Below, piece by piece: positions 12,257 through 23,356 of a stretch of DNA of 64,000 bases. The notes under the pieces were generated by a model. That model was not told the origin of the DNA, made no database searches, and saw only the letters and a list, made by a program, of their open reading frames with translations. Within the stretch, counting starts at the first letter, position 1; every line of letters starts with the position of its first letter. Both the position numbers and the translations under genes were made by a program. The stretch covers positions 384,001-448,000 of the forward strand of contig CAVVKJ010000005.1 in the NCBI GenBank assembly GCA_963748815.1, given 5' to 3'. Origin of the DNA: an uncultured Gemmatimonadales bacterium. GTDB lineage: Bacteria > Gemmatimonadota > Gemmatimonadetes > Gemmatimonadales > GWC2-71-9.

Positions 12257-12292
12257 GACGATGGCACGCTCCCCTAGGCCGTGGGGGAGGGC

Positions 12293-13987
12293 GTGATCTT
12301 TTCGATCGACTCCGAAGCCTGCGTGGCCTGTCTGGCCTGCGTCCGCGTCTGTCCGACGGAAGCGGTCGCCGTGGACGGGGAGCAGGTGCAGATCGTGGAT
12401 GAGGCGTGCATTGCGTGCGGCGAGTGTCTGCCGGCGTGCCCGCATCAGGCCATCCACGCGAGCGGAGAAATCGGTCGCGCGCTGACGGTCGCGGCTCGGG
12501 GCGACGGCATTCTGATCCTGAGTTCGGAAGCGACGGCGCACTTTTTCCCGGCTACGCCGGAGCAGGTGGTCAACGCCTGCTACGCGGCCGGGTTCCGCAC
12601 GGTGCATCGCGGGGTCATCGGCGATGAACTCGTGGCGGCGGAGTACTTGAGTCTCTGGCGTGACGAGGGGTGGGGCACGCTGATCCGGTCCACCGATCCG
12701 GTGGTGGTCGAGACGGTGCGCATCGATTACCCCGAGCTGGTGCCGTACCTGGCGCCGGTCACGATACCTGCGGTGGCGGAGGCGCGGTATCTTCGCGCGC
12801 AGCACGGGCAGGAGCTTCGCATCGTGTACGCCGGCGTCGCGGCGCCGCGGAACACGCCGGAGCTCGATGCCGCCGTCACCTTCGACGACCTCGAGCGGAT
12901 CTTTCAGTTGCGGGGCGTCTCGGTGCTCGCGCAGGCCGATTTCTTCGCGCGGATTCCCGAGGAACGGCGCCGGCACCTGAGCGCCGCGGGCGGCCTGCCG
13001 CTCGCCATGCTCGAGGAGGCGCGCCACGCGAGCCGCCGGTTCCGCACCATGCGGGGGCTCAAGCACCTGCCGGCGCTGGCCCAGGCGGTGGCGGTCGACC
13101 GGCTGGACCTGGGGTTCGTGGACCTGCTCTCCTTCGAGGGGGGGCTCGACCACCCGCTGCTCGGTCCGAAGGACCAGCTCTACTGGCGGCGCGCCCTCCT
13201 CGCGAGCGCGGAGCCGCCGCGGAGCCCGCGACCGGTGGTGGATGGAGCGGTGGTGGCGAGTATCGGGGCCACGTTCGACATCCGGCCCCGGCGGCTGGCG
13301 TCCGATCCGACCGCGGTGGCAGCCTTGCTCGACGCCATCGGTCCGGGGCCCAATGGGCGCCCTTGGGACTGCGGGGCCTGCGGCTTCACCACCTGCGCGC
13401 GGTTCGCGTCCGCGGCGGTGCTCGGCCGGGCGACGCTCCGCCAGTGCCCGCCGTACCAGGAGCGCCGCGCGGAAGAGGCCTCGCGCGAGGCGGCGGTGGA
13501 CCTGCTGACCGGACTCGCCACCTTCCGGGTGCTGCGCGACCGGCTGAGCCACGAGATTGAACGGAGCAAGCGCAGCGAGGAAGGGTTCGCGGTGCTGTTC
13601 ATCGACCTCGACCGCTTCAAGCTGCTGAACGACCGGTTCGGGCACGAGGCAGGCAACGAGGTCCTGAAGGCGGTGGCGGCGGAAATCCGGAGCGCAGTGC
13701 GCGCCTCCGACCTTGCCGCCCGCTACGGAGGCGACGAGTTCGTCGTCATCCTGACCCGCACCGACCTCCATGGCGCCCGCCGAGTGGCGGAGGCGCTTCG
13801 GGCCGGCATCGAAGGGGTCGGGCGCCGACTGGGGTACGAGGTCGGGGTCGTGACCGTTAGCATCGGGCTGGCCGAGTTCGACCCGGCGAGCCCCACCGAG
13901 GGCGACCTGCTGGTGACCGCCGATCGCGCCTTGTACCAGGCCAAGGCCACGGGCCGGAACGCCGTGGCCAACGAAGGGGCCGCCTGA
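12293..13987 (+). CDS. Fe-S diguanylate cyclase: 2x[4Fe-4S] ferredoxin + degenerate [FeFe]-hydrogenase-like domain + FeS domain + GGDEF
   Basis: CVACLACVRVCP, CIACGECLPACP, CGACGFTTC..C, DLDRFK, RASD and ARYGGDEF. Confidence 0.85.
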   Translation: MIFSIDSEACVACLACVRVCPTEAVAVDGEQVQIVDEACIACGECLPACPHQAIHASGEIGRALTVAARGDGILILSSEATAHFFPATPEQVVNACYAAGFRTVHRGVIGDELVAAEYLSLWRDEGWGTLIRSTDPVVVETVRIDYPELVPYLAPVTIPAVAEARYLRAQHGQELRIVYAGVAAPRNTPELDAAVTFDDLERIFQLRGVSVLAQADFFARIPEERRRHLSAAGGLPLAMLEEARHASRRFRTMRGLKHLPALAQAVAVDRLDLGFVDLLSFEGGLDHPLLGPKDQLYWRRALLASAEPPRSPRPVVDGAVVASIGATFDIRPRRLASDPTAVAALLDAIGPGPNGRPWDCGACGFTTCARFASAAVLGRATLRQCPPYQERRAEEASREAAVDLLTGLATFRVLRDRLSHEIERSKRSEEGFAVLFIDLDRFKLLNDRFGHEAGNEVLKAVAAEIRSAVRASDLAARYGGDEFVVILTRTDLHGARRVAEALRAGIEGVGRRLGYEVGVVTVSIGLAEFDPASPTEGDLLVTADRALYQAKATGRNAVANEGAA

Positions 13988-14031
13988 GGGCGGCCGCAGC
14001 CCCCACAGGCATTCAGCGACAGGACATCGAG

Positions 14032-14787
14032 ATGGCGTTCAATTCCGCGAGGCAGTCCGACGCCGGCTTCCAGGCCGCGCGCACCACGCCAAGTGGTGGG
14101 CACGGTGGTGAGGCGCCCGATCCCTGGGGCGTGCGCCGGGCGGAAAACCTCCTGACCACGCTCGAGGGGATTCTCTCCGCGCGGGTCGTCACCACGCCGC
14201 TCGGCGAGGTGAGCGAGGTGCACATCCTGGCCCAGTCGGGGCTCGCGCCGAAGCAGCTGGTGCGGAACATCGAGTCGGCGCTCCTGGCGCAGCTCGGCCT
14301 CCGGGTGGACCACCGCAAGATCAGCATCGCGCAGACGGCGGACGTCAAGCCGATCGAGGCGCTCGAAAAGGAGGCGGTGCGGAGCCAGGCGCTCCACCGG
14401 GCCATCCTCTTCGAGGACCTGACGGTGGCGCCGGGCAAGCGCGCGCACCGGATCACCATCAGCGTGAGCCTCAGCTTCCTCGGCCGGAAGGAAACGGCGG
14501 AAGAGGAGAGCAGTGACACGCCGCGGAGCCGGGTAGAGGCGGCGGCGCGGGCCACGGTCTTGGTGCTCGACCGGTTGCTGGAGGACTCGTCGGTGGCGCT
14601 CGAGGGGGCCAAGATCGTCCCCGCCTTCGACCGGGACTTCGTGTTCGTGGCGGTGCAGGGGCTGGGCGGGCGCGAGTCGCTCGTGCTGACCGGCAGCGCG
14701 CAGATCAAGGAAAGCGCCGAGCGGGCCGCGGTCTTTGCGGTGCTCGACGCAACCAACCGATGGACGGAACTCCGCCGACCGCGATAG
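14032..14787 (+). CDS. conserved hypothetical protein; C-terminal LeuA-allosteric-like fold
   Basis: host-like codon usage; EVHILA..PKQLVRNIESAL..DHRKISIAQ N-domain; C-domain of two beta3-alpha units ending AVLDATNR. Confidence 0.75.
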   Translation: MAFNSARQSDAGFQAARTTPSGGHGGEAPDPWGVRRAENLLTTLEGILSARVVTTPLGEVSEVHILAQSGLAPKQLVRNIESALLAQLGLRVDHRKISIAQTADVKPIEALEKEAVRSQALHRAILFEDLTVAPGKRAHRITISVSLSFLGRKETAEEESSDTPRSRVEAAARATVLVLDRLLEDSSVALEGAKIVPAFDRDFVFVAVQGLGGRESLVLTGSAQIKESAERAAVFAVLDATNRWTELRRPR

Positions 14788-14800
14788 GCGCGGGCGGCGA

Positions 14801-14950
14801 TTCTACCAACCCGAGCGGAGGGAACAGAGCGAGGTAGGGGGTCGAGTCTTCAAGAGGCAGCGGAGACTAGCGGACAACAGAGCGGAGCGTCTGGTAGGCC
14901 ATAGCGAGGCCGACCACTTCCCGAGTCACTGATGTACTCGAAGGGAGGTG
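14801..14950 (+). promoter_or_regulatory. putative structured cis-regulatory leader with repeats and an anti-SD hairpin
   Basis: six AGCG(G/A)(A/G)(G/C) units in predicted loops and junctions; CACTTCCC pairs with GGGAGGTG. Confidence 0.6.
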
Positions 14951-14956
14951 ACGCTC

Positions 14957-15037
14957 ATGTTGCAGATTACTTGGCTTGCCGCCGCTGTGAAGTTCGTGGC
15001 GAATCTGTTCCTGGCCGAAGGCCAGGACTGGGCCTAG
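14957..15037 (+). CDS. 26-aa peptide MLQITWLAAAVKFVANLFLAEGQDWA
   Basis: strong SD AAGGGAGGTGA just upstream of ATG; fills the gap before the HD-GYP gene; absent from the ORF track. Confidence 0.72.
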   Translation: MLQITWLAAAVKFVANLFLAEGQDWA

Positions 15038-15080
15038 TTAGGGCCTGATGCCTCGACCCCCCACCGAGCTGTTCCAATCC

Positions 15081-16484
15081 ATGAGATCACTCACCAAGAC
15101 CAATCTGTTCATCGCGTTCATGGCTTCTGTCGCCGTGGCGCTGGGCGTGTTGGCTTGGCAGCATCGGCAGCCCTCCCCGGGCATTTGGCCGCTTCTCAGC
15201 TTCATCTTCATGGCGTTTCTGGTGGAGCAGAGCACTACGGAGCTCAAGGTTTCCGCGCGCGGGTCGACCTCCTTCGTGATGCATATGTCCGCCGGTTTGA
15301 TTTTTGGTGGATTTTGGGGTGGGGTAGTCGCAGCTTCCTCAACGGCTCTTGGGCAACTGTCGATTGGTAACCCACCAGCAAAGACGCTGTTCAATATCGC
15401 CCAGCGCGCGGCATCTGTGCTTATCGCTGTTCTTGTCTATCGCCTGCTCGAAGGCGGCCTACCTCCTGCATACATGCAAGTCGTTGGAACTGTTGAGTCC
15501 TCGGCGATTCAGCGGGACTTCTTCCTATTCTTCGCATATGCCGCAACGTACTTCGTAGTGAATTCTATGGCGGTGAGTGGGGTTGTGGCGCTGAGCGCGG
15601 AGCGCTCATTCCGAGATGTGTGGAGCCTCAACACCCGCGGTGTCATCGGGTACGACCTCGGGGCCAGCGCCATCGCCCTGCTGCTGGCGTGGCTCTATAC
15701 CTGGTTCCAGGCCACTTGGGAGCTCGGCTCCATCGGTCTGGTCCTGGTGGTGATTCCGATTGTGGCGGTGCGGCATGTGTACGGGCTCTACCACCAGTTG
15801 CAGGAGAGCGGCCAGGAACTCCTCCAGGTGATGGTCAAGGCCATCGAGGCCCGCGACCCCTACACCTCCGGCCACTCCCTCCGGGTGAGCCAGCTTTCCC
15901 GGCTCATTGCGCTGGAAATGGGCCTCCAGATTCGCGACGTGGAACAGGTGCACACCGCCGCGCTGCTGCACGACGTCGGCAAGATTCACGAGGAGTTCGC
16001 GCCGCTGCTGCGGAAGGAAGACCGGCTGACCGCCGACGAAACGGCGCTGATGCAGACCCACTCCGCCCGGAGCGCCGAGCTGGTGGGGATCATCTCGAAG
16101 TTTCGCGGCTTCATCCAGGAGTCGGTGCGCCACCACCACGAGCGGTGGGACGGGAAGGGATACCCGGCCGGCCTCTCCGGGCACGAGATCCCGCTGGCCT
16201 CCCGGATCATCCTGGTGGCCGACACCATCGACGCCATGACCACCGACCGCCCCTACCGGAAGCGGCTCCCGCTCGAAGTCGTCATCGCGGAGCTCCAGAA
16301 GTGCCGCGGCGGGCAGTTCGACCCCGAGGTGGTGGAACATGTGGTATCGTCCGTCGCGGTGCGACGTCTGATCACCGTCGGTGTCGAATCGTCTCCGATG
16401 CCTGCCACTGTCACAGTCTCCGACCCCGGCGCCACTCGTGCTGGATGGGCGAAGAAGTCGTTCTGGAAGGGGCGGTCGGCCTAG
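15081..16484 (+). CDS. membrane-anchored HD-GYP c-di-GMP phosphodiesterase (MASE-like sensor); start may be 15048
   Basis: about 7 TM helices, then EARDPYTSGHS, LHDVGKI, HHERWDGKGYP and DAMTTDRPYRK. Confidence 0.92.
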   Translation: MRSLTKTNLFIAFMASVAVALGVLAWQHRQPSPGIWPLLSFIFMAFLVEQSTTELKVSARGSTSFVMHMSAGLIFGGFWGGVVAASSTALGQLSIGNPPAKTLFNIAQRAASVLIAVLVYRLLEGGLPPAYMQVVGTVESSAIQRDFFLFFAYAATYFVVNSMAVSGVVALSAERSFRDVWSLNTRGVIGYDLGASAIALLLAWLYTWFQATWELGSIGLVLVVIPIVAVRHVYGLYHQLQESGQELLQVMVKAIEARDPYTSGHSLRVSQLSRLIALEMGLQIRDVEQVHTAALLHDVGKIHEEFAPLLRKEDRLTADETALMQTHSARSAELVGIISKFRGFIQESVRHHHERWDGKGYPAGLSGHEIPLASRIILVADTIDAMTTDRPYRKRLPLEVVIAELQKCRGGQFDPEVVEHVVSSVAVRRLITVGVESSPMPATVTVSDPGATRAGWAKKSFWKGRSA

Positions 16485-16499
16485 CAGAGCCGAGACTTC

Positions 16500-19400
16500 T
16501 CAGATATCGAGCATCCCGAAAGCTCGCAGTTCATTTGCAGCTCCCAATGGGAGCTTAACCAGCCTCCTCCACATCTCCTCTCGTTCCCCCTCATCGGCAT
16601 CATTGGACTTGTGAATCGAGCCAGACCTTGGCGTTCAGGACCTCGGCCTGATCAATACTGTCTAGGGAATCTCTGGCGCGACAAGAGTGTCGCTAGGGCT
16701 AGTGCGCGCCTCTTCGATGGGGATGTCGCCGTTCGCGGCACTCTTGGCAAGCCATCGTGCGAAGGGACCAGCAAGAGAATCGGATTGAAGCTTCTCGCAT
16801 CTCCCCCGTCAGTGCCCCTATCGCGCTTTCCTGCGCCTCCCTGTTTCGTCCAAGTAAGGCGAGGACGTCGGCTGCGCGTAGCTGCCACAACTGGCGTACC
16901 CAACGTTGATCGACATGTTGAAGGGCTGCATTTCCTCGACGGAGTTCATCCAGGGCTTCCATTGTTTCACCACGAAGTGCATGGCCCTCTGCCAGGATGT
17001 AGTGGAGATTTTGATCAAGAATATCGATCTGTTGACTTCCACTTCTCGCCGGTGGCCCTGCTCGCCCATTGCAACTGGGCGTCCTGAATTGCCAAGTCGC
17101 GAATGGAACAGTGCAATGTTTGCAAGGAAAGAGCCGCAGCCGGCGCTCTTCGCCCATTTCACGCGCCGCAGCCACTCCACGCTCCCCGATAGCAAGCGCA
17201 ACTTCGTATTCGCCTAGGCTGCTATGGATAGCGCAACGCCCCAACAGTAGGGCGAGGTAGACTGAGTTCTTGATCTTGTTGGCCTCAAGGTCACCGATGA
17301 CCTCATCTATGACTTCAAGGCTGCGCGCTCGGTCGCCAGAGAAGTAGAGGCACAAGGCCTTGCCCAAGGGCGTATTCCCCCTTGTCCTCCAGGGAAAGTG
17401 CGCTGAACTCTTCGCTCTCAAGTTGCTTCCAGATGTCTGCGAGCAACGATCTGTCTCGGGTACTCCCGAAATAGTCTCGCTGCAATCCACAGTGCCCGAA
17501 GTCGCGTGTTGGGCTCTTCTGCCGATCTCGCTTCGCGGAGAAGATTCATTGCAATATCCCGACTCCGATCTGCCGTCCGGTCGTTTACTAGTTGTTCTGC
17601 GTAGAGCCGCAACACGTTTCGTCTTGTGAGAATCTCTGCGCGGGACGAGGCTCTGGACCGCGTCAAGCGACGCCATCGACTCCCGCATCCTCCCTTGTTC
17701 CTGGAGCGACTCTCCGAGCAGAAGGAGGGCTTCGCTCTTGTCCGGCTCCTTGAGCCGATCCATTGCCGTGGAGAGCCCACGCTCCGCCTCGTGCGGGGCC
17801 CCTCCGCGCATCGACTCCCGCGCCCCACGCAACAGATAGGGTGTCGCCTCATCGGGCCTCCCGGCGCGGATCAGGTGCCAGGCGATTTCCAGCCCCGGGA
17901 TCCGCCCGCCGTTCGCCTCGATGGCGAGCAGCCGGGAGACGACCTCGCCGTGCAGCGCCGTCCGCATCGGCTTGGGAATGCCGAGGTACGCATGCCCCCG
18001 CGTCAATTCGTTCACGAATTCGAGTCGCTCCTCCGTTTCGCGCAGCAACCGGGATGACCGGAGCGCCTCCATCGACTGACCCGTCGCGCCGAGCCCCAGG
18101 TCCACGATCTGGTACATCGGGAATTCGTTCAGTCTCGGCCCCAACACCGCCGCGAGCTGCAGCGCCAGACGTGCCGGTGCGTCGAGCCCCTCACAGATCC
18201 GGTCCAGCGCCATCCGGTAGGCATCTTCCGGGGGTGAGCGTTGACCCAACTCCTCGCGCATCGCCGGGACGGCGAGCGCGAGGCTGCCTTCGCCGCTGCT
18301 GATCCACTCGCTTACGAAGAGCTCGAGTGCGAGCGGATATCCCCCTGCGGCGCGGAGCATGGCGTCGCGCACCGATTTCCCCGGATCGGGACCGTCGGCG
18401 GTCAGCGTGTCGAGCATCTCGGCCGCCTCGTCCGGCGCCATTGGCGGCACCTCGAGGGAGACAAACCCGAGCCGGGTGTGGCTCTCGCGCAGGCGGGCGA
18501 TGTTCGGCGACTCGTTGGGACCCGTGGGCCGCGCGGCCAGCGCGATCATGACCCGCTCGGACTCGAACCGGCGGGCGAGAAGGTGGATCACGGACAGGCT
18601 GGCGTCGTCCGCCATGTGGAAGTCATCGACGACCAGCATCACCGGGGTCTCCTCGGCGATGGTCCGGAGCAGCGACTCCATCGCGTCGGTCACCCGAATG
18701 CGGAACGACTCCCCGTGGAGCTGCAGGGACGGGGGAAGGCTGGGGAATTGCTCCCGGAGCGCCGGAACCGCCTGGCTCAGGTCGGCCAACGACTGGGGAG
18801 AGGTGCCCAGCGCCTCGGGGCGCTCAAGCAGTCCGCGGACCAGCGCGCCGAGGGCGGCGTAGGGAATCTCCCGCTCCAACTCGTAGCACTGCACCCGGCT
18901 GGTGACGGCCCCGTCGAGGCTGACGGCCGTCATCAGCCGCTGCAGCAGGGTGCTCTTGCCGATGCCCGATTCGCCCAGGACCAGGGCGTGCGTGGGGACG
19001 CCGCGCGTGGTGCGCTCCCAGGCTTCGTACATCGTCTGGTACTCGGCGGTCCGACCGATGAAGGTGCGATCCCGCCATTGCTCGGTGGGGACGCGCGGGC
19101 GGTTGCCGTCGCCGCCCCCCTCGAGTGTCCCGCGGCGGAGGCGCCTCGCCATCGCCTCGAGCTGCTCGGAAGGCTCGGCGTGCAGTTCGGTATGGAGATC
19201 ATGCTTCCAGGTCTCGAACGCCTTGAGGGCGCCGATGCGGTCGCCGGCGAACGCCCGCGCTTCGATCCGTGCCCGGATCGCCGCTTCGCTCAGTGCATTG
19301 TGGCGCAGGGTCCGCTCGGCGAGTGGTTCGATGCCGGTGAAGTCTCCCGTCCGGCGGCAGTAGTCCATCTGGCGGACCAGTGCCGCCTCGATCGAGGGCC

Positions 19401-19836
19401 AGAGCCGGGCGCGCTGCTGGTCGCGCCAATGGTTGAAGCTGGGAGCGTCCGGGACGTCGAAGTCCTCGAGAAAGGCATCCACCTCGAGGGCAGGCAGAAG
19501 GTCCGTGGCCAGGACCTCCCCCCGTTGCAGCCGGTCCAGGTCACACTCCAGCTGGACCGTGGTGCGAATGGTGTAGGTGTCGCCGGGGAACGACTTGGGA
19601 CCCACCCGGTTCCGGAGTGCCCAGATGGCGGTCCCCATCGAATGGCGCGCCTCGTTCATCCCGGCGTTCGACCAAAGGAGGTCGGCAAGCCGCTCGCGAC
19701 GGATGGGAGCCCGCCCCTCCATGGTGAGATAGATCAGGAGCGCGAGCTGCTTTTGGGTCCTGAGGCGGATCGGGCTCCCGCTGGCGTCGAGGAGGGCGGG
19801 ATGACCCAGACAACGGAGGTATGCGGGCTTGCCCAT
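16500..19836 (-). CDS. SARP/BTAD + AAA ATPase (STAND) + TPR regulator; several frameshifts in the 3' third
   Basis: RRERLADLLW, FNHWRDQQR, GESGIGKS and VDDFHMAD motifs; TPR-like pieces continue in shifting frames to ..ELRAFGMLDI* at 16500. Confidence 0.8.
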
Positions 19837-20106
19837 CGAAGGCTCCGGTAGCGTGGTGCGGATACCATGGGGTCGCGGGCTCAACGGGGGATCAACGACG
19901 AGAGGATCAGGTGTTGAGAGATTGTAATGTTCCTCGCCTCCGCGATTTGTCCAGAGCCCTGCATCACGGTTCGCAAGCCTTTTCCCTGCAACGTGTTGCA
20001 CGTCACGGTACGGCCCCGATGTTGCGACTCTCTCCTTTGACTCGGTAGATTGCCCCGCCTTTGTGACCCCGCGCACTCCCCATTGCGCCTCAATCGGAGA
20101 TTCTCA

Positions 20107-23018: not shown

Positions 23019-23356
23019 AGCAGCTGGCAGTCGGCCTGGGGCTGACGGCGGTGGTGACCGCCCTCCTGGTCTGGGGGTTTGGACCGGAGGCGTTCTTGCC
23101 CGGAGTGGCGTTCGGGGCCGTGGCGACCGCCATCCAGCTCATTGCCGGAGTGTTCCTGCGGCGGGCGGTCGGCCAGCCATTCGAGCAGCTCCTGAAGGCG
23201 TGGGGCATCGGCATGGGACTTCGGGTGCTCGGGATGTTCCTCTTCCTGGGCGCGGTGCTGGCTGACCGGACGTTGTTTCCGCCGCTCCCGACGGCACTGG
23301 CGTTCCTGGGGGTGCTGATTCCCCTGATGTTCTCGGACCTACGGACGATACGATGA
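23015..23356 (+). CDS. ATP synthase protein I-like membrane protein
   Basis: 4 TM helices; GTG overlaps the upstream stop; lies before atpB. Confidence 0.7.
   Translation: MKQLAVGLGLTAVVTALLVWGFGPEAFLPGVAFGAVATAIQLIAGVFLRRAVGQPFEQLLKAWGIGMGLRVLGMFLFLGAVLADRTLFPPLPTALAFLGVLIPLMFSDLRTIR

Follow-up and report, generated by a model that had tools for sequence, protein, structure and literature searches.

The leader of a 26-codon gene in the window (a 64,000-nt stretch of DNA from an uncultured Gemmatimonadales bacterium) is a real, conserved and folded RNA with repeated AGCG words, which hides the ribosome start of the encoded peptide and wraps the whole peptide gene. The RNA domain is larger than the initial annotation of this DNA saw, and its core fold is different. 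We put at about 0.5 the probability that the element is a cis-acting mRNA control domain. The odds seem similarly even that the AGCG words are single-stranded sites for a protein, probably the product of the upstream gene, which would control translation of the peptide.

All parts of the cassette lie on the plus strand. It starts with a gene for a 251-aa protein (14032–14787), which belongs to no Pfam or NCBIfam family and is the candidate reader of the AGCG words, and continues with the AGCG leader, the micropeptide gene (14957–15037) and a gene for a MASE9/HD-GYP membrane phosphodiesterase (15081–16484). Directly upstream, 12281–13987 (plus strand) encodes a protein with ferredoxin, degenerate [FeFe]-hydrogenase-like, Fe-S and GGDEF parts, so that a cyclase gene and a phosphodiesterase gene flank the cassette. 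No promoter-like site was found in a scan of the region, and a simple scan for terminator-like sites, which is weak in GC-rich DNA, gave none in 13900–16800. A GC content lower than that of the flanks is apparent in the MASE9-coding part (15100–15600) and after the HD-GYP gene (16500–17700), and a large minus-strand BTAD/AAA gene (16699–20076) seems to be split into separate frames where it ends on the 3′ side.

The relatives of the window locus are labelled Gemmatimonadales. Among 110 loci with the upstream gene, 97 show the leader core and the start codon; alignment A1 holds 82 loci, after removal of 16 duplicates and of 12 loci that matched no pattern. Eight of these 12 end within 470 nt, one (L076) has lost the 5′ part of its leader, and two (L107 and L110) were picked up with less strict patterns; no leader was seen in L105. 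The same plan recurs in most of 20 further regions from other families or second copies. Of 151 genomes from the phylum, 105 have the full-length upstream gene (counted at E < 1e-40), and an RNA model of the leader matches 74 of 150 genomes, 72 of which bear the gene; in 71 of these 72 the leader lies at most about 900 nt downstream of it. Only two of 46 genomes without the full gene give a leader match, G009 at a contig start and G102 at a borderline E of 0.009, and there is no match in 32 of 104 gene-bearing genomes, to which contig ends and divergence may contribute. A genome has one leader, always within this cassette; in G132 the leader is duplicated along with the upstream gene. Any member of an operon would show such co-occurrence, and related genomes do not count as independent cases. 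Genomes G030 (L107), G101 (L114, L231) and G136 are unpublished and enter as single tally rows, on which the conclusions do not depend.

Beyond the phylum, two named Bacillota records share the gene order, the AGCG words, the copy in a hairpin loop and the long-range helix P0, and scanning metagenomes with Bacillota-like homologues yielded 80 loci; with the two records added and four duplicates removed, 78 were examined. Where 1,500 nt of downstream DNA were available, an HD-GYP gene follows in 46 of 47 Bacillota-like loci and at least two AGCG words occur in the first 200 nt in 45 of 47; the sole locus without HD-GYP also has no AGCG. The Gemmatimonadales model is weak on these leaders (14 matches in 60 loci, best E 0.015) and the leader helices differ in detail, so the link between the groups rests on gene order, word and layout. 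As far as these features tell, it is the same module in two distant bacterial groups, even in AT-rich DNA.

The six AGCG(G/A)(A/G)(G/C) 7-mers that had been read from the window leader are all present, at 14814, 14828, 14859, 14869, 14881 and 14903, and there is a seventh, overlapping AGCG at 14886. At least six copies of this pattern were reached in none of 20,000 dinucleotide shuffles of 14788–14960, a test that is post hoc. The fairer statistic, the highest count of any word, gives P values of about 0.085 for 4-mers, 0.24 for 5-mers, 0.012 for 6-mers and 0.023 for 7-mers, so that the window leader alone is only modestly unusual. This is the sole place on both strands of the 3.16-Mb genome where at least four AGCG(G/A)A words lie within 110 nt. 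It is conservation, not single-sequence statistics, that decides that the repeats are real. Among 72 peptide-aligned leaders, AGCG is retained in 71 at 14859, in 68 at 14869 (a single-stranded linker, 14869–14875), in 72 and 71 at 14881 and 14886 (the tandem AGCG-G-AGCG, 14881–14891) and in all 72 at 14903, while the first two repeats (14814–14834) are genus-specific, with AGCG in only 9 leaders at 14814 and in only 8 at 14828. The repeats, presented earlier as six equivalent units, are thus four that are conserved across Gemmatimonadales, together with the overlapping copy at 14886. Gemmatimonadales leaders carry 4.3 AGCG(G/A) each against 0.74 after shuffling (n = 92), and Bacillota-like leaders 2.75 against 0.40 (n = 56); among the latter 56, all with an identified peptide, four have no AGCG(G/A) and 55 have AGCG at least twice.

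The invariant letters are AGCG, followed by G or A; GGA is missing from the loop copy. The number of words per leader varies from 2 to 6 and the spacings between them are 5, 10–12, 14–17 and 22 nt; all copies have the same orientation, two lie 10 nt apart in Gemmatimonadales, and the tandem is also found in Bacillota-like leaders. Of the small loops in which several repeats had been placed, one conserved AGCG-bearing loop, of 7 nt (14903), is seen; words also lie in linkers and beside helices. The last AGCG falls within a hairpin loop in 87 of 92 Gemmatimonadales and 39 of 56 Bacillota-like leaders. All 19 leaders with less than 40% GC retain AGCG (mean 2.7 copies, against a background of 0.23 per 150 nt) and none of them contains CGCT, which indicates that AGCG is not retained for the sake of pairing within the leader and speaks against the idea that the repeats are there to pair with CGCT. 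Variable number and spacing, and one copy in a hairpin loop, support the view that the repeats behave like recognition words. In the leaders of L170, L171 and L172 the tandem reads AGCGT-AGCGT rather than AGCG(G/A) and the loop copy is absent, a variant that would be useful for specificity tests; the leaders of L057, L061, L027 and L070 have additional AGCG copies in the variable loop of the 5′ hairpin. Elsewhere in the window, five AGCG(G/A)(A/G)(G/C) words 8 nt apart lie on the minus strand at about 23282–23310, in the region of the ATP synthase a-subunit, and are probably coding-sequence repeats.

The consensus fold of the leader is a three-way junction. P1 pairs 14885–14891, a strand that includes the second tandem AGCG (14886), with 14950–14956; P2 (14893–14915) displays the AGCG at 14903 in its loop (14901–14907); and in P3 (14916–14949) the anti-SD strand 14916–14922 pairs with the SD strand 14943–14949. 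A 5′ hairpin with a variable loop (14846–14867), at whose loop 3′ end repeat 3 (14859) is placed, precedes the junction. Junction and 5′ hairpin together are paired in 93.9% of alignment cells, with 13 of 28 pairs changed on both sides; none of 500 shuffles reaches this score and slid controls pair 42–50%, a comparison that flatters the fold because the structure was drawn from these same, related sequences. Changes on both sides occur in 6 of 8 pairs of P2 (96.3% paired), 4 of 7 pairs of P3 (90.4%) and 2 of 6 pairs of the 5′ hairpin (87.9%), whereas just one of 7 pairs of P1 (99.8%) covaries, P1 being nearly invariant and therefore little tested. An automatic consensus fold of 11 cross-phylum leaders recovered P2 alone (5 pairs, all with double changes) and misaligned P1, and the junction is loosely kept between phyla.

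Every helix drawn in the initial annotation exists as complementary letters in the window sequence, with unequal conservation among the 72 homologues. The SD-sequestering hairpin is borne out (its SD helix is paired in 89% of cells and covaries as P3), as is the GGCC/GGCC hairpin around ATAGCGA, paired in 99% of cells and covarying; AGTCT/AGACT is paired in 81% and CAGA/TCTG in 65%, and CTACC/GGTAG (28%), GGTCG/CGACC (47%) and CCC/GGG (50%) are not conserved. The leader RNA itself is conserved and covarying, as had been suggested, but P1 at the start codon and the long-range P0 had been missed. Searches of Rfam 15, including the c-di-GMP-I and c-di-GMP-II riboswitches, gave no match in the 64-kb window, none at E ≤ 10 for 14700–15100 and none in 10 homologous loci, which places the leader in no Rfam family. 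Beyond locus position 3726 of L076 the 5′ part of the leader, with three repeats and the 5′ strand of P1, is lost while P2, the SD and the peptide are kept; this is either a natural deletion or an assembly error.

P0 joins 14833–14846 with 15052–15065, past the peptide stop, and encloses the repeats and the whole 26-codon gene. Its 5′ arm occupies 14821–14846 (core 14833–14846, extension 14821–14827), and its 3′ arm (15052–15075) ends 5 nt short of the HD-GYP start. Over 72 sequences P0 is 89.2% paired, with double changes in 11 of 13 pairs, against 36–70% in slid controls, and a locus's own 3′ arm gives better pairing than an arm from another locus in 81 of 92 Gemmatimonadales and 50 of 56 Bacillota-like loci. 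G-rich and C-rich arms exchange sides between families. G-U pairs are common in P0; as mismatches are common too, P0 was ruled out as a DNA inverted repeat or inversion site. Folding of the full domain gave at least six confident long-range pairs in 76 of 82 Gemmatimonadales loci, four of the other six having a wrongly chosen start, and P0 is predicted in 34 of 36 Bacillota-like loci; the 296-nt domain of the window has a folding z of −4.2. In both groups the peptide stop and the HD-GYP start are separated by a median of 39–44 nt, with the 3′ arm of P0 located in between. Folding predicts a small hairpin across the peptide stop codon (15031–15046 in the window) in 66 of 92 Gemmatimonadales and 30 of 56 Bacillota-like loci, counts that have no shuffle control.

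The micropeptide gene runs from an ATG at 14957 to a stop at 15037. Between nearest pairs, 233 substitutions fall on the third codon position against 133 and 98 on the others, and 163 against 69 and 39 in the other group; judged by this third-position bias, the ORF is coding. The window peptide has a Trp near its C-terminus; a Trp lies at most four residues from the peptide end in 83 of 88 sequences, and an aromatic residue does so in 84 of 88 and 50 of 54. The peptide has no family match. A Rap-Phr signal peptide was considered and rejected: TIGR04429 scored 16.4 and 13 bits against a cut-off of 25 in two of seven peptides, the window peptide gave no match, and the pairing also fails by neighbour, which is MASE9/HD-GYP instead of a TPR receptor. 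In L221 the peptide at this position is longer (38 aa) and rich in proline, and differs from the usual form with its aromatic end.

Directly 5′ of the ATG lie a strong SD (14944–14951) and the 3′ strand of P1, which together fill 14944–14956. The SD is complementary to the 16S 3′ end found on contig C10, whose anti-SD is normal, and strong SDs are rare in genome G000 (38 of 369 likely genes). The predicted opening cost of the peptide start, 14.9, is equalled by 8 of 44 ordinary SD-led starts; it lies in the upper range, and by this estimate the SD is only moderately closed for a GC-rich genome. Holding the AGCG words unpaired lowers the computed cost from 14.5 to 9.5 kcal/mol in Gemmatimonadales (12.3 with random sites; n = 92), and by more than 2 kcal/mol in 80 of 92 of these leaders against 14 of 55 in the other group. 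In Bacillota-like leaders (n = 55) the cost goes from 10.0 to 9.3 with AGCG open and to 9.4 with random sites, so there is no effect beyond random and the direction of control is not general.

The structure of the upstream protein was predicted with a pLDDT of 94 as a small alpha/beta N-domain followed by a C-domain resembling the LeuA/CMS regulatory domain. The C-domain fold is like that of LeuA/citramalate synthase (PDB 3fig, 3f6g; Z 9.0, rmsd 3.1, 108 aligned residues), but identity is 12–17% and the upstream protein has no catalytic domain. Residues H33, K43, R47, D62 and S67 of the N-domain are kept in 56 of 56 sequences across phyla. The top fold matches of the N-domain are acyl-CoA ligase C-domains, metal-transporter CTDs, ring-building motifs and BolA, none of them RNA-binding; these are generic alpha/beta folds at Z 7–9, the few dsRBD rows for the whole model have poor rmsd, and the absence of an RNA-binding fold among the top rows does not exclude one. 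From gene position and the conserved basic residues we infer that the protein may bind RNA. Pfam searches with 73 members of the family gave weak sub-cut-off matches alone (ZT_dimer in 6, LeuA_dimer in 4), a PDB sequence search with A4 gave one match at E 0.21, and the ESM Atlas returned only ‘hypothetical protein’ clusters. The source names of homologues include Clostridia, Armatimonadetes and Atribacterota; no relative was found in viral contigs, and among plasmids the upstream gene occurs in just two records and the MASE9 query in one. A protein of about 150 aa that matches the LeuA-like C-domain alone is encoded at G000:C5:566518-566784 and in most relatives, also in genomes without the full gene, and in L143 such a C-domain-only gene has no leader after it. 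One lineage (L101:2245-2910, also L102, L103, L107 and L144) has a gene between the upstream gene and the leader which, by reading, was named HTH-like and receiver-like; in L101–L103 the leader remains with the peptide.

The downstream protein matches MASE9 (E 5e-8, 33.5 bits against a cut-off of 24.3) and HD_5 (E 1.5e-34, 119.6 bits against 27.2). Its ORF is open from 15048, and the likely start, 15081, was judged from homologues. There is no SD before the HD-GYP start in 75 of 82 Gemmatimonadales loci, which is ordinary in G000, where few genes have a strong SD; in 32 of 36 Bacillota-like loci the HD-GYP gene has an SD of its own. A split SD, in which a purine run 5′ of P0 would serve the HD-GYP start across the base of the helix, was discarded as a general explanation, as a strong SD-like flank is seen in just 13 of the 76 Gemmatimonadales loci and 3 of the 34 others. 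A predicted complex of peptide and MASE9 from the homologue L071 scored 0.50 (best of three controls 0.00); runs agreed in at least 69% of contacts and the partner pLDDT was at least 60. A score of 0.60 or under is found for only 5 of 78 solved complexes and for every one of the 4 mismatches (of 180) that passed. This model weakly supports a contact between the peptide and the MASE9 domain. MASE9-HD-GYP proteins of the same type are TM1467 and Streptomyces HdgA (10.1101/2021.11.05.467447; PMC6205966). In the parts seen of the former source, a MASE9 ligand was suggested to bind within the membrane and its nature was left open, and the word ‘peptide’ is absent from the main text; the parts seen of PMC6205966 do not mention an upstream small ORF or leader. 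Membrane genes follow HD-GYP in some records: DUF5317 is annotated, in two pieces, in the Natranaerobius record (L146:6229-6736), and L145:6348-6911 is similar. DUF5317 (PF17248) was not found in G000 (86% complete), while the Thermus and Thermotoga controls gave matches.

For the favoured reading, a cis-acting control domain, it counts that P2, P3 and P0 covary above shuffle and slide controls. Comparison of homologues shows P0 closing a domain of about 250 nt, with the 5′ end of the leader paired to the stretch after the peptide stop; inside it, aligned leaders show 2–6 AGCG(G/A) words, placed in linkers, next to helices and once in a hairpin loop, and the P1-P2-P3 junction, as drawn from the alignment, holds the strong SD of the peptide and the bases adjoining its start codon. 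An oligomeric protein, most likely the upstream gene product, would bind several AGCG words together and so alter access to the peptide SD. Since one AGCG belongs to the 5′ strand of P1, binding in Gemmatimonadales would favour opening. The hydrophobic peptide could then act on the MASE9 membrane domain of the adjoining HD-GYP enzyme, and ribosomes finishing the peptide may loosen P0 beside the HD-GYP start; the net output would be control of c-di-GMP breakdown.

Several other explanations were weighed. It is unlikely, in our estimate, that the P0-closed domain is a separate, abundant and stable RNA, acting both as peptide mRNA and as a sponge that titrates an AGCG-binding protein. The pairing of its 5′ and 3′ ends and the variation in repeat number from 2 to 6 would fit, and in two of four RNA runs, from two studies, contig depth is 563 over 14919–15063 and 144 over 14804–15010 against 2–8 for the organism-like contigs on the neighbouring genes; both of the deep contigs end in letters that we take to be sequencing adapter. 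However, these are contigs, not reads, which give no level, ends or strand and hence are a lead only; the runs were selected for containing part of this stretch, and the two contigs stop at different places. The other two runs are flat, their contigs continuing into the neighbouring genes, and nothing follows from those RNA-run bins over the HD-GYP gene that have no cover. The lack of promoter-like and terminator-like sites and the single occurrence per genome, always within the cassette, also speak against a separate RNA. Somewhat more improbable is a riboswitch, in which the AGCG words would engage in tertiary contacts or form a pocket that binds a small ligand, for example a cyclic dinucleotide, and the SD would open without a protein. 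The overlap of the three-way junction with the SD, the unpaired bases that do not vary and the c-di-GMP gene context would suit it, but no Rfam riboswitch matches the window or the homologous loci, and a variable number and spacing of words together with a junction loosely kept between phyla is unlike an aptamer.

The chances are equally low that coupling works without a dedicated protein, P0 melting by ribosomes setting the ratio of peptide to HD-GYP and a general factor (a nuclease or ribosomal component) reading AGCG. The place of the P0 3′ arm between the peptide stop and the HD-GYP start in both groups and the frequent hairpin over the stop favour such coupling; it leaves unexplained why one upstream gene is kept across phyla and why the words cluster nowhere else in the genome, and it is weakly supported because SDs are scarce genome-wide and most Bacillota-like HD-GYP genes have their own. 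Very improbable are DNA operator repeats for a transcription factor, overlaid on the RNA structure: the uniform direction of the copies, the pair 10 nt apart and the HTH-like/receiver gene inserted in some genomes could be read that way, but the spacings of 5–22 nt, which include 5-nt tandems, argue against a fixed-phase DNA site, and a covarying hairpin that includes G-U pairs carries one copy in its loop. A CsrA/RsmA target or GGA sponge, the alternative named in the initial annotation, is scarcely credible. GGA occurs within four repeats, but the invariant letters stop at AGCG, the loop copy has no GGA, and CsrA (PF02599) was matched in 10 of 61 relatives, in 3 of 14 controls and in none of the 17 genomes of this genus, whose leaders are well conserved.

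To our knowledge, only a few bacterial regulators recognise RNA sequence-specifically at repeated sites, namely TRAP, HutP, ANTAR and CsrA. In TRAP, HutP and ANTAR leaders a short repeated word is read by a protein, which changes a helix over a control site, and the likeness here is a repeated short leader word, presumably read by an oligomeric protein. The trp leader bound by TRAP has about 9–11 (G/U)AG triplets with 2-nt spacers, whereas here the word is AGCG, in 2–6 copies spaced by 5–22 nt; in HutP and ANTAR antitermination leaders an intrinsic terminator overlaps the binding site, and no terminator-like site was found here; ANTAR target RNA has two tandem hairpins with like hexanucleotide loops, and the present leader has only one conserved AGCG-bearing small loop, of 7 nt. 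The neighbouring protein has no known family and the RNA no Rfam match, unlike those systems; ANTAR (PF03861) gave nothing in G000, although the control genomes also gave no match. CsrA/RsmA targets carry ANGGA words in loops, and the CsrB/RsmZ sponges resemble the element in their repeated words, some in hairpin loops, and possibly in abundance, but here the word is not ANGGA, CsrA was not found in most carriers, and a conserved coding ORF lies inside the RNA. Leader-peptide and coupling devices, and the 5′-3′ paired type I toxin mRNAs hok and aapA, share a small ORF with a sequestered SD and pairing across the ORF; here no single-amino-acid run was seen in the peptides, and the downstream gene consistently encodes a MASE9/HD-GYP enzyme. 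That the element works like TRAP, HutP, ANTAR or CsrA targets is an analogy, and the defining features of those systems fail where tested. The multivalent protein-binding attenuator proposed at the outset keeps its conserved leader and SD helix and loses its terminator-type part; protein binding is what we infer. The element was not found in the literature searched, with subscription papers largely outside its scope; the motif tables of PMC5737381 and PMC11109978 could hold this RNA. The term ‘HD-GYP’ is absent from the main texts of PMC11109978 and PMC8632094 as far as these were seen, and one short supplement of the latter gave no match.

A helix around a whole ORF, kept by compensatory changes across phyla, is unusual. 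The analysis names a word (AGCG), a candidate reader without a family and a testable output, and it offers a candidate ligand for MASE9; cultured carriers exist (the Natranaerobius and Subdoligranulum records), which makes gel shifts and reporters directly feasible. The fullest version of the proposal, doubtful but conceivable, is that an undescribed, sequence-specific RNA-binding family with a LeuA-like sensor reads AGCG in a closed RNA domain, which would also accumulate as a stable species of its own, and in this way controls production of the peptide, which would be the missing intramembrane ligand of MASE9 sensors on c-di-GMP phosphodiesterases. If true, this would be a self-contained signalling circuit spread over several phyla.
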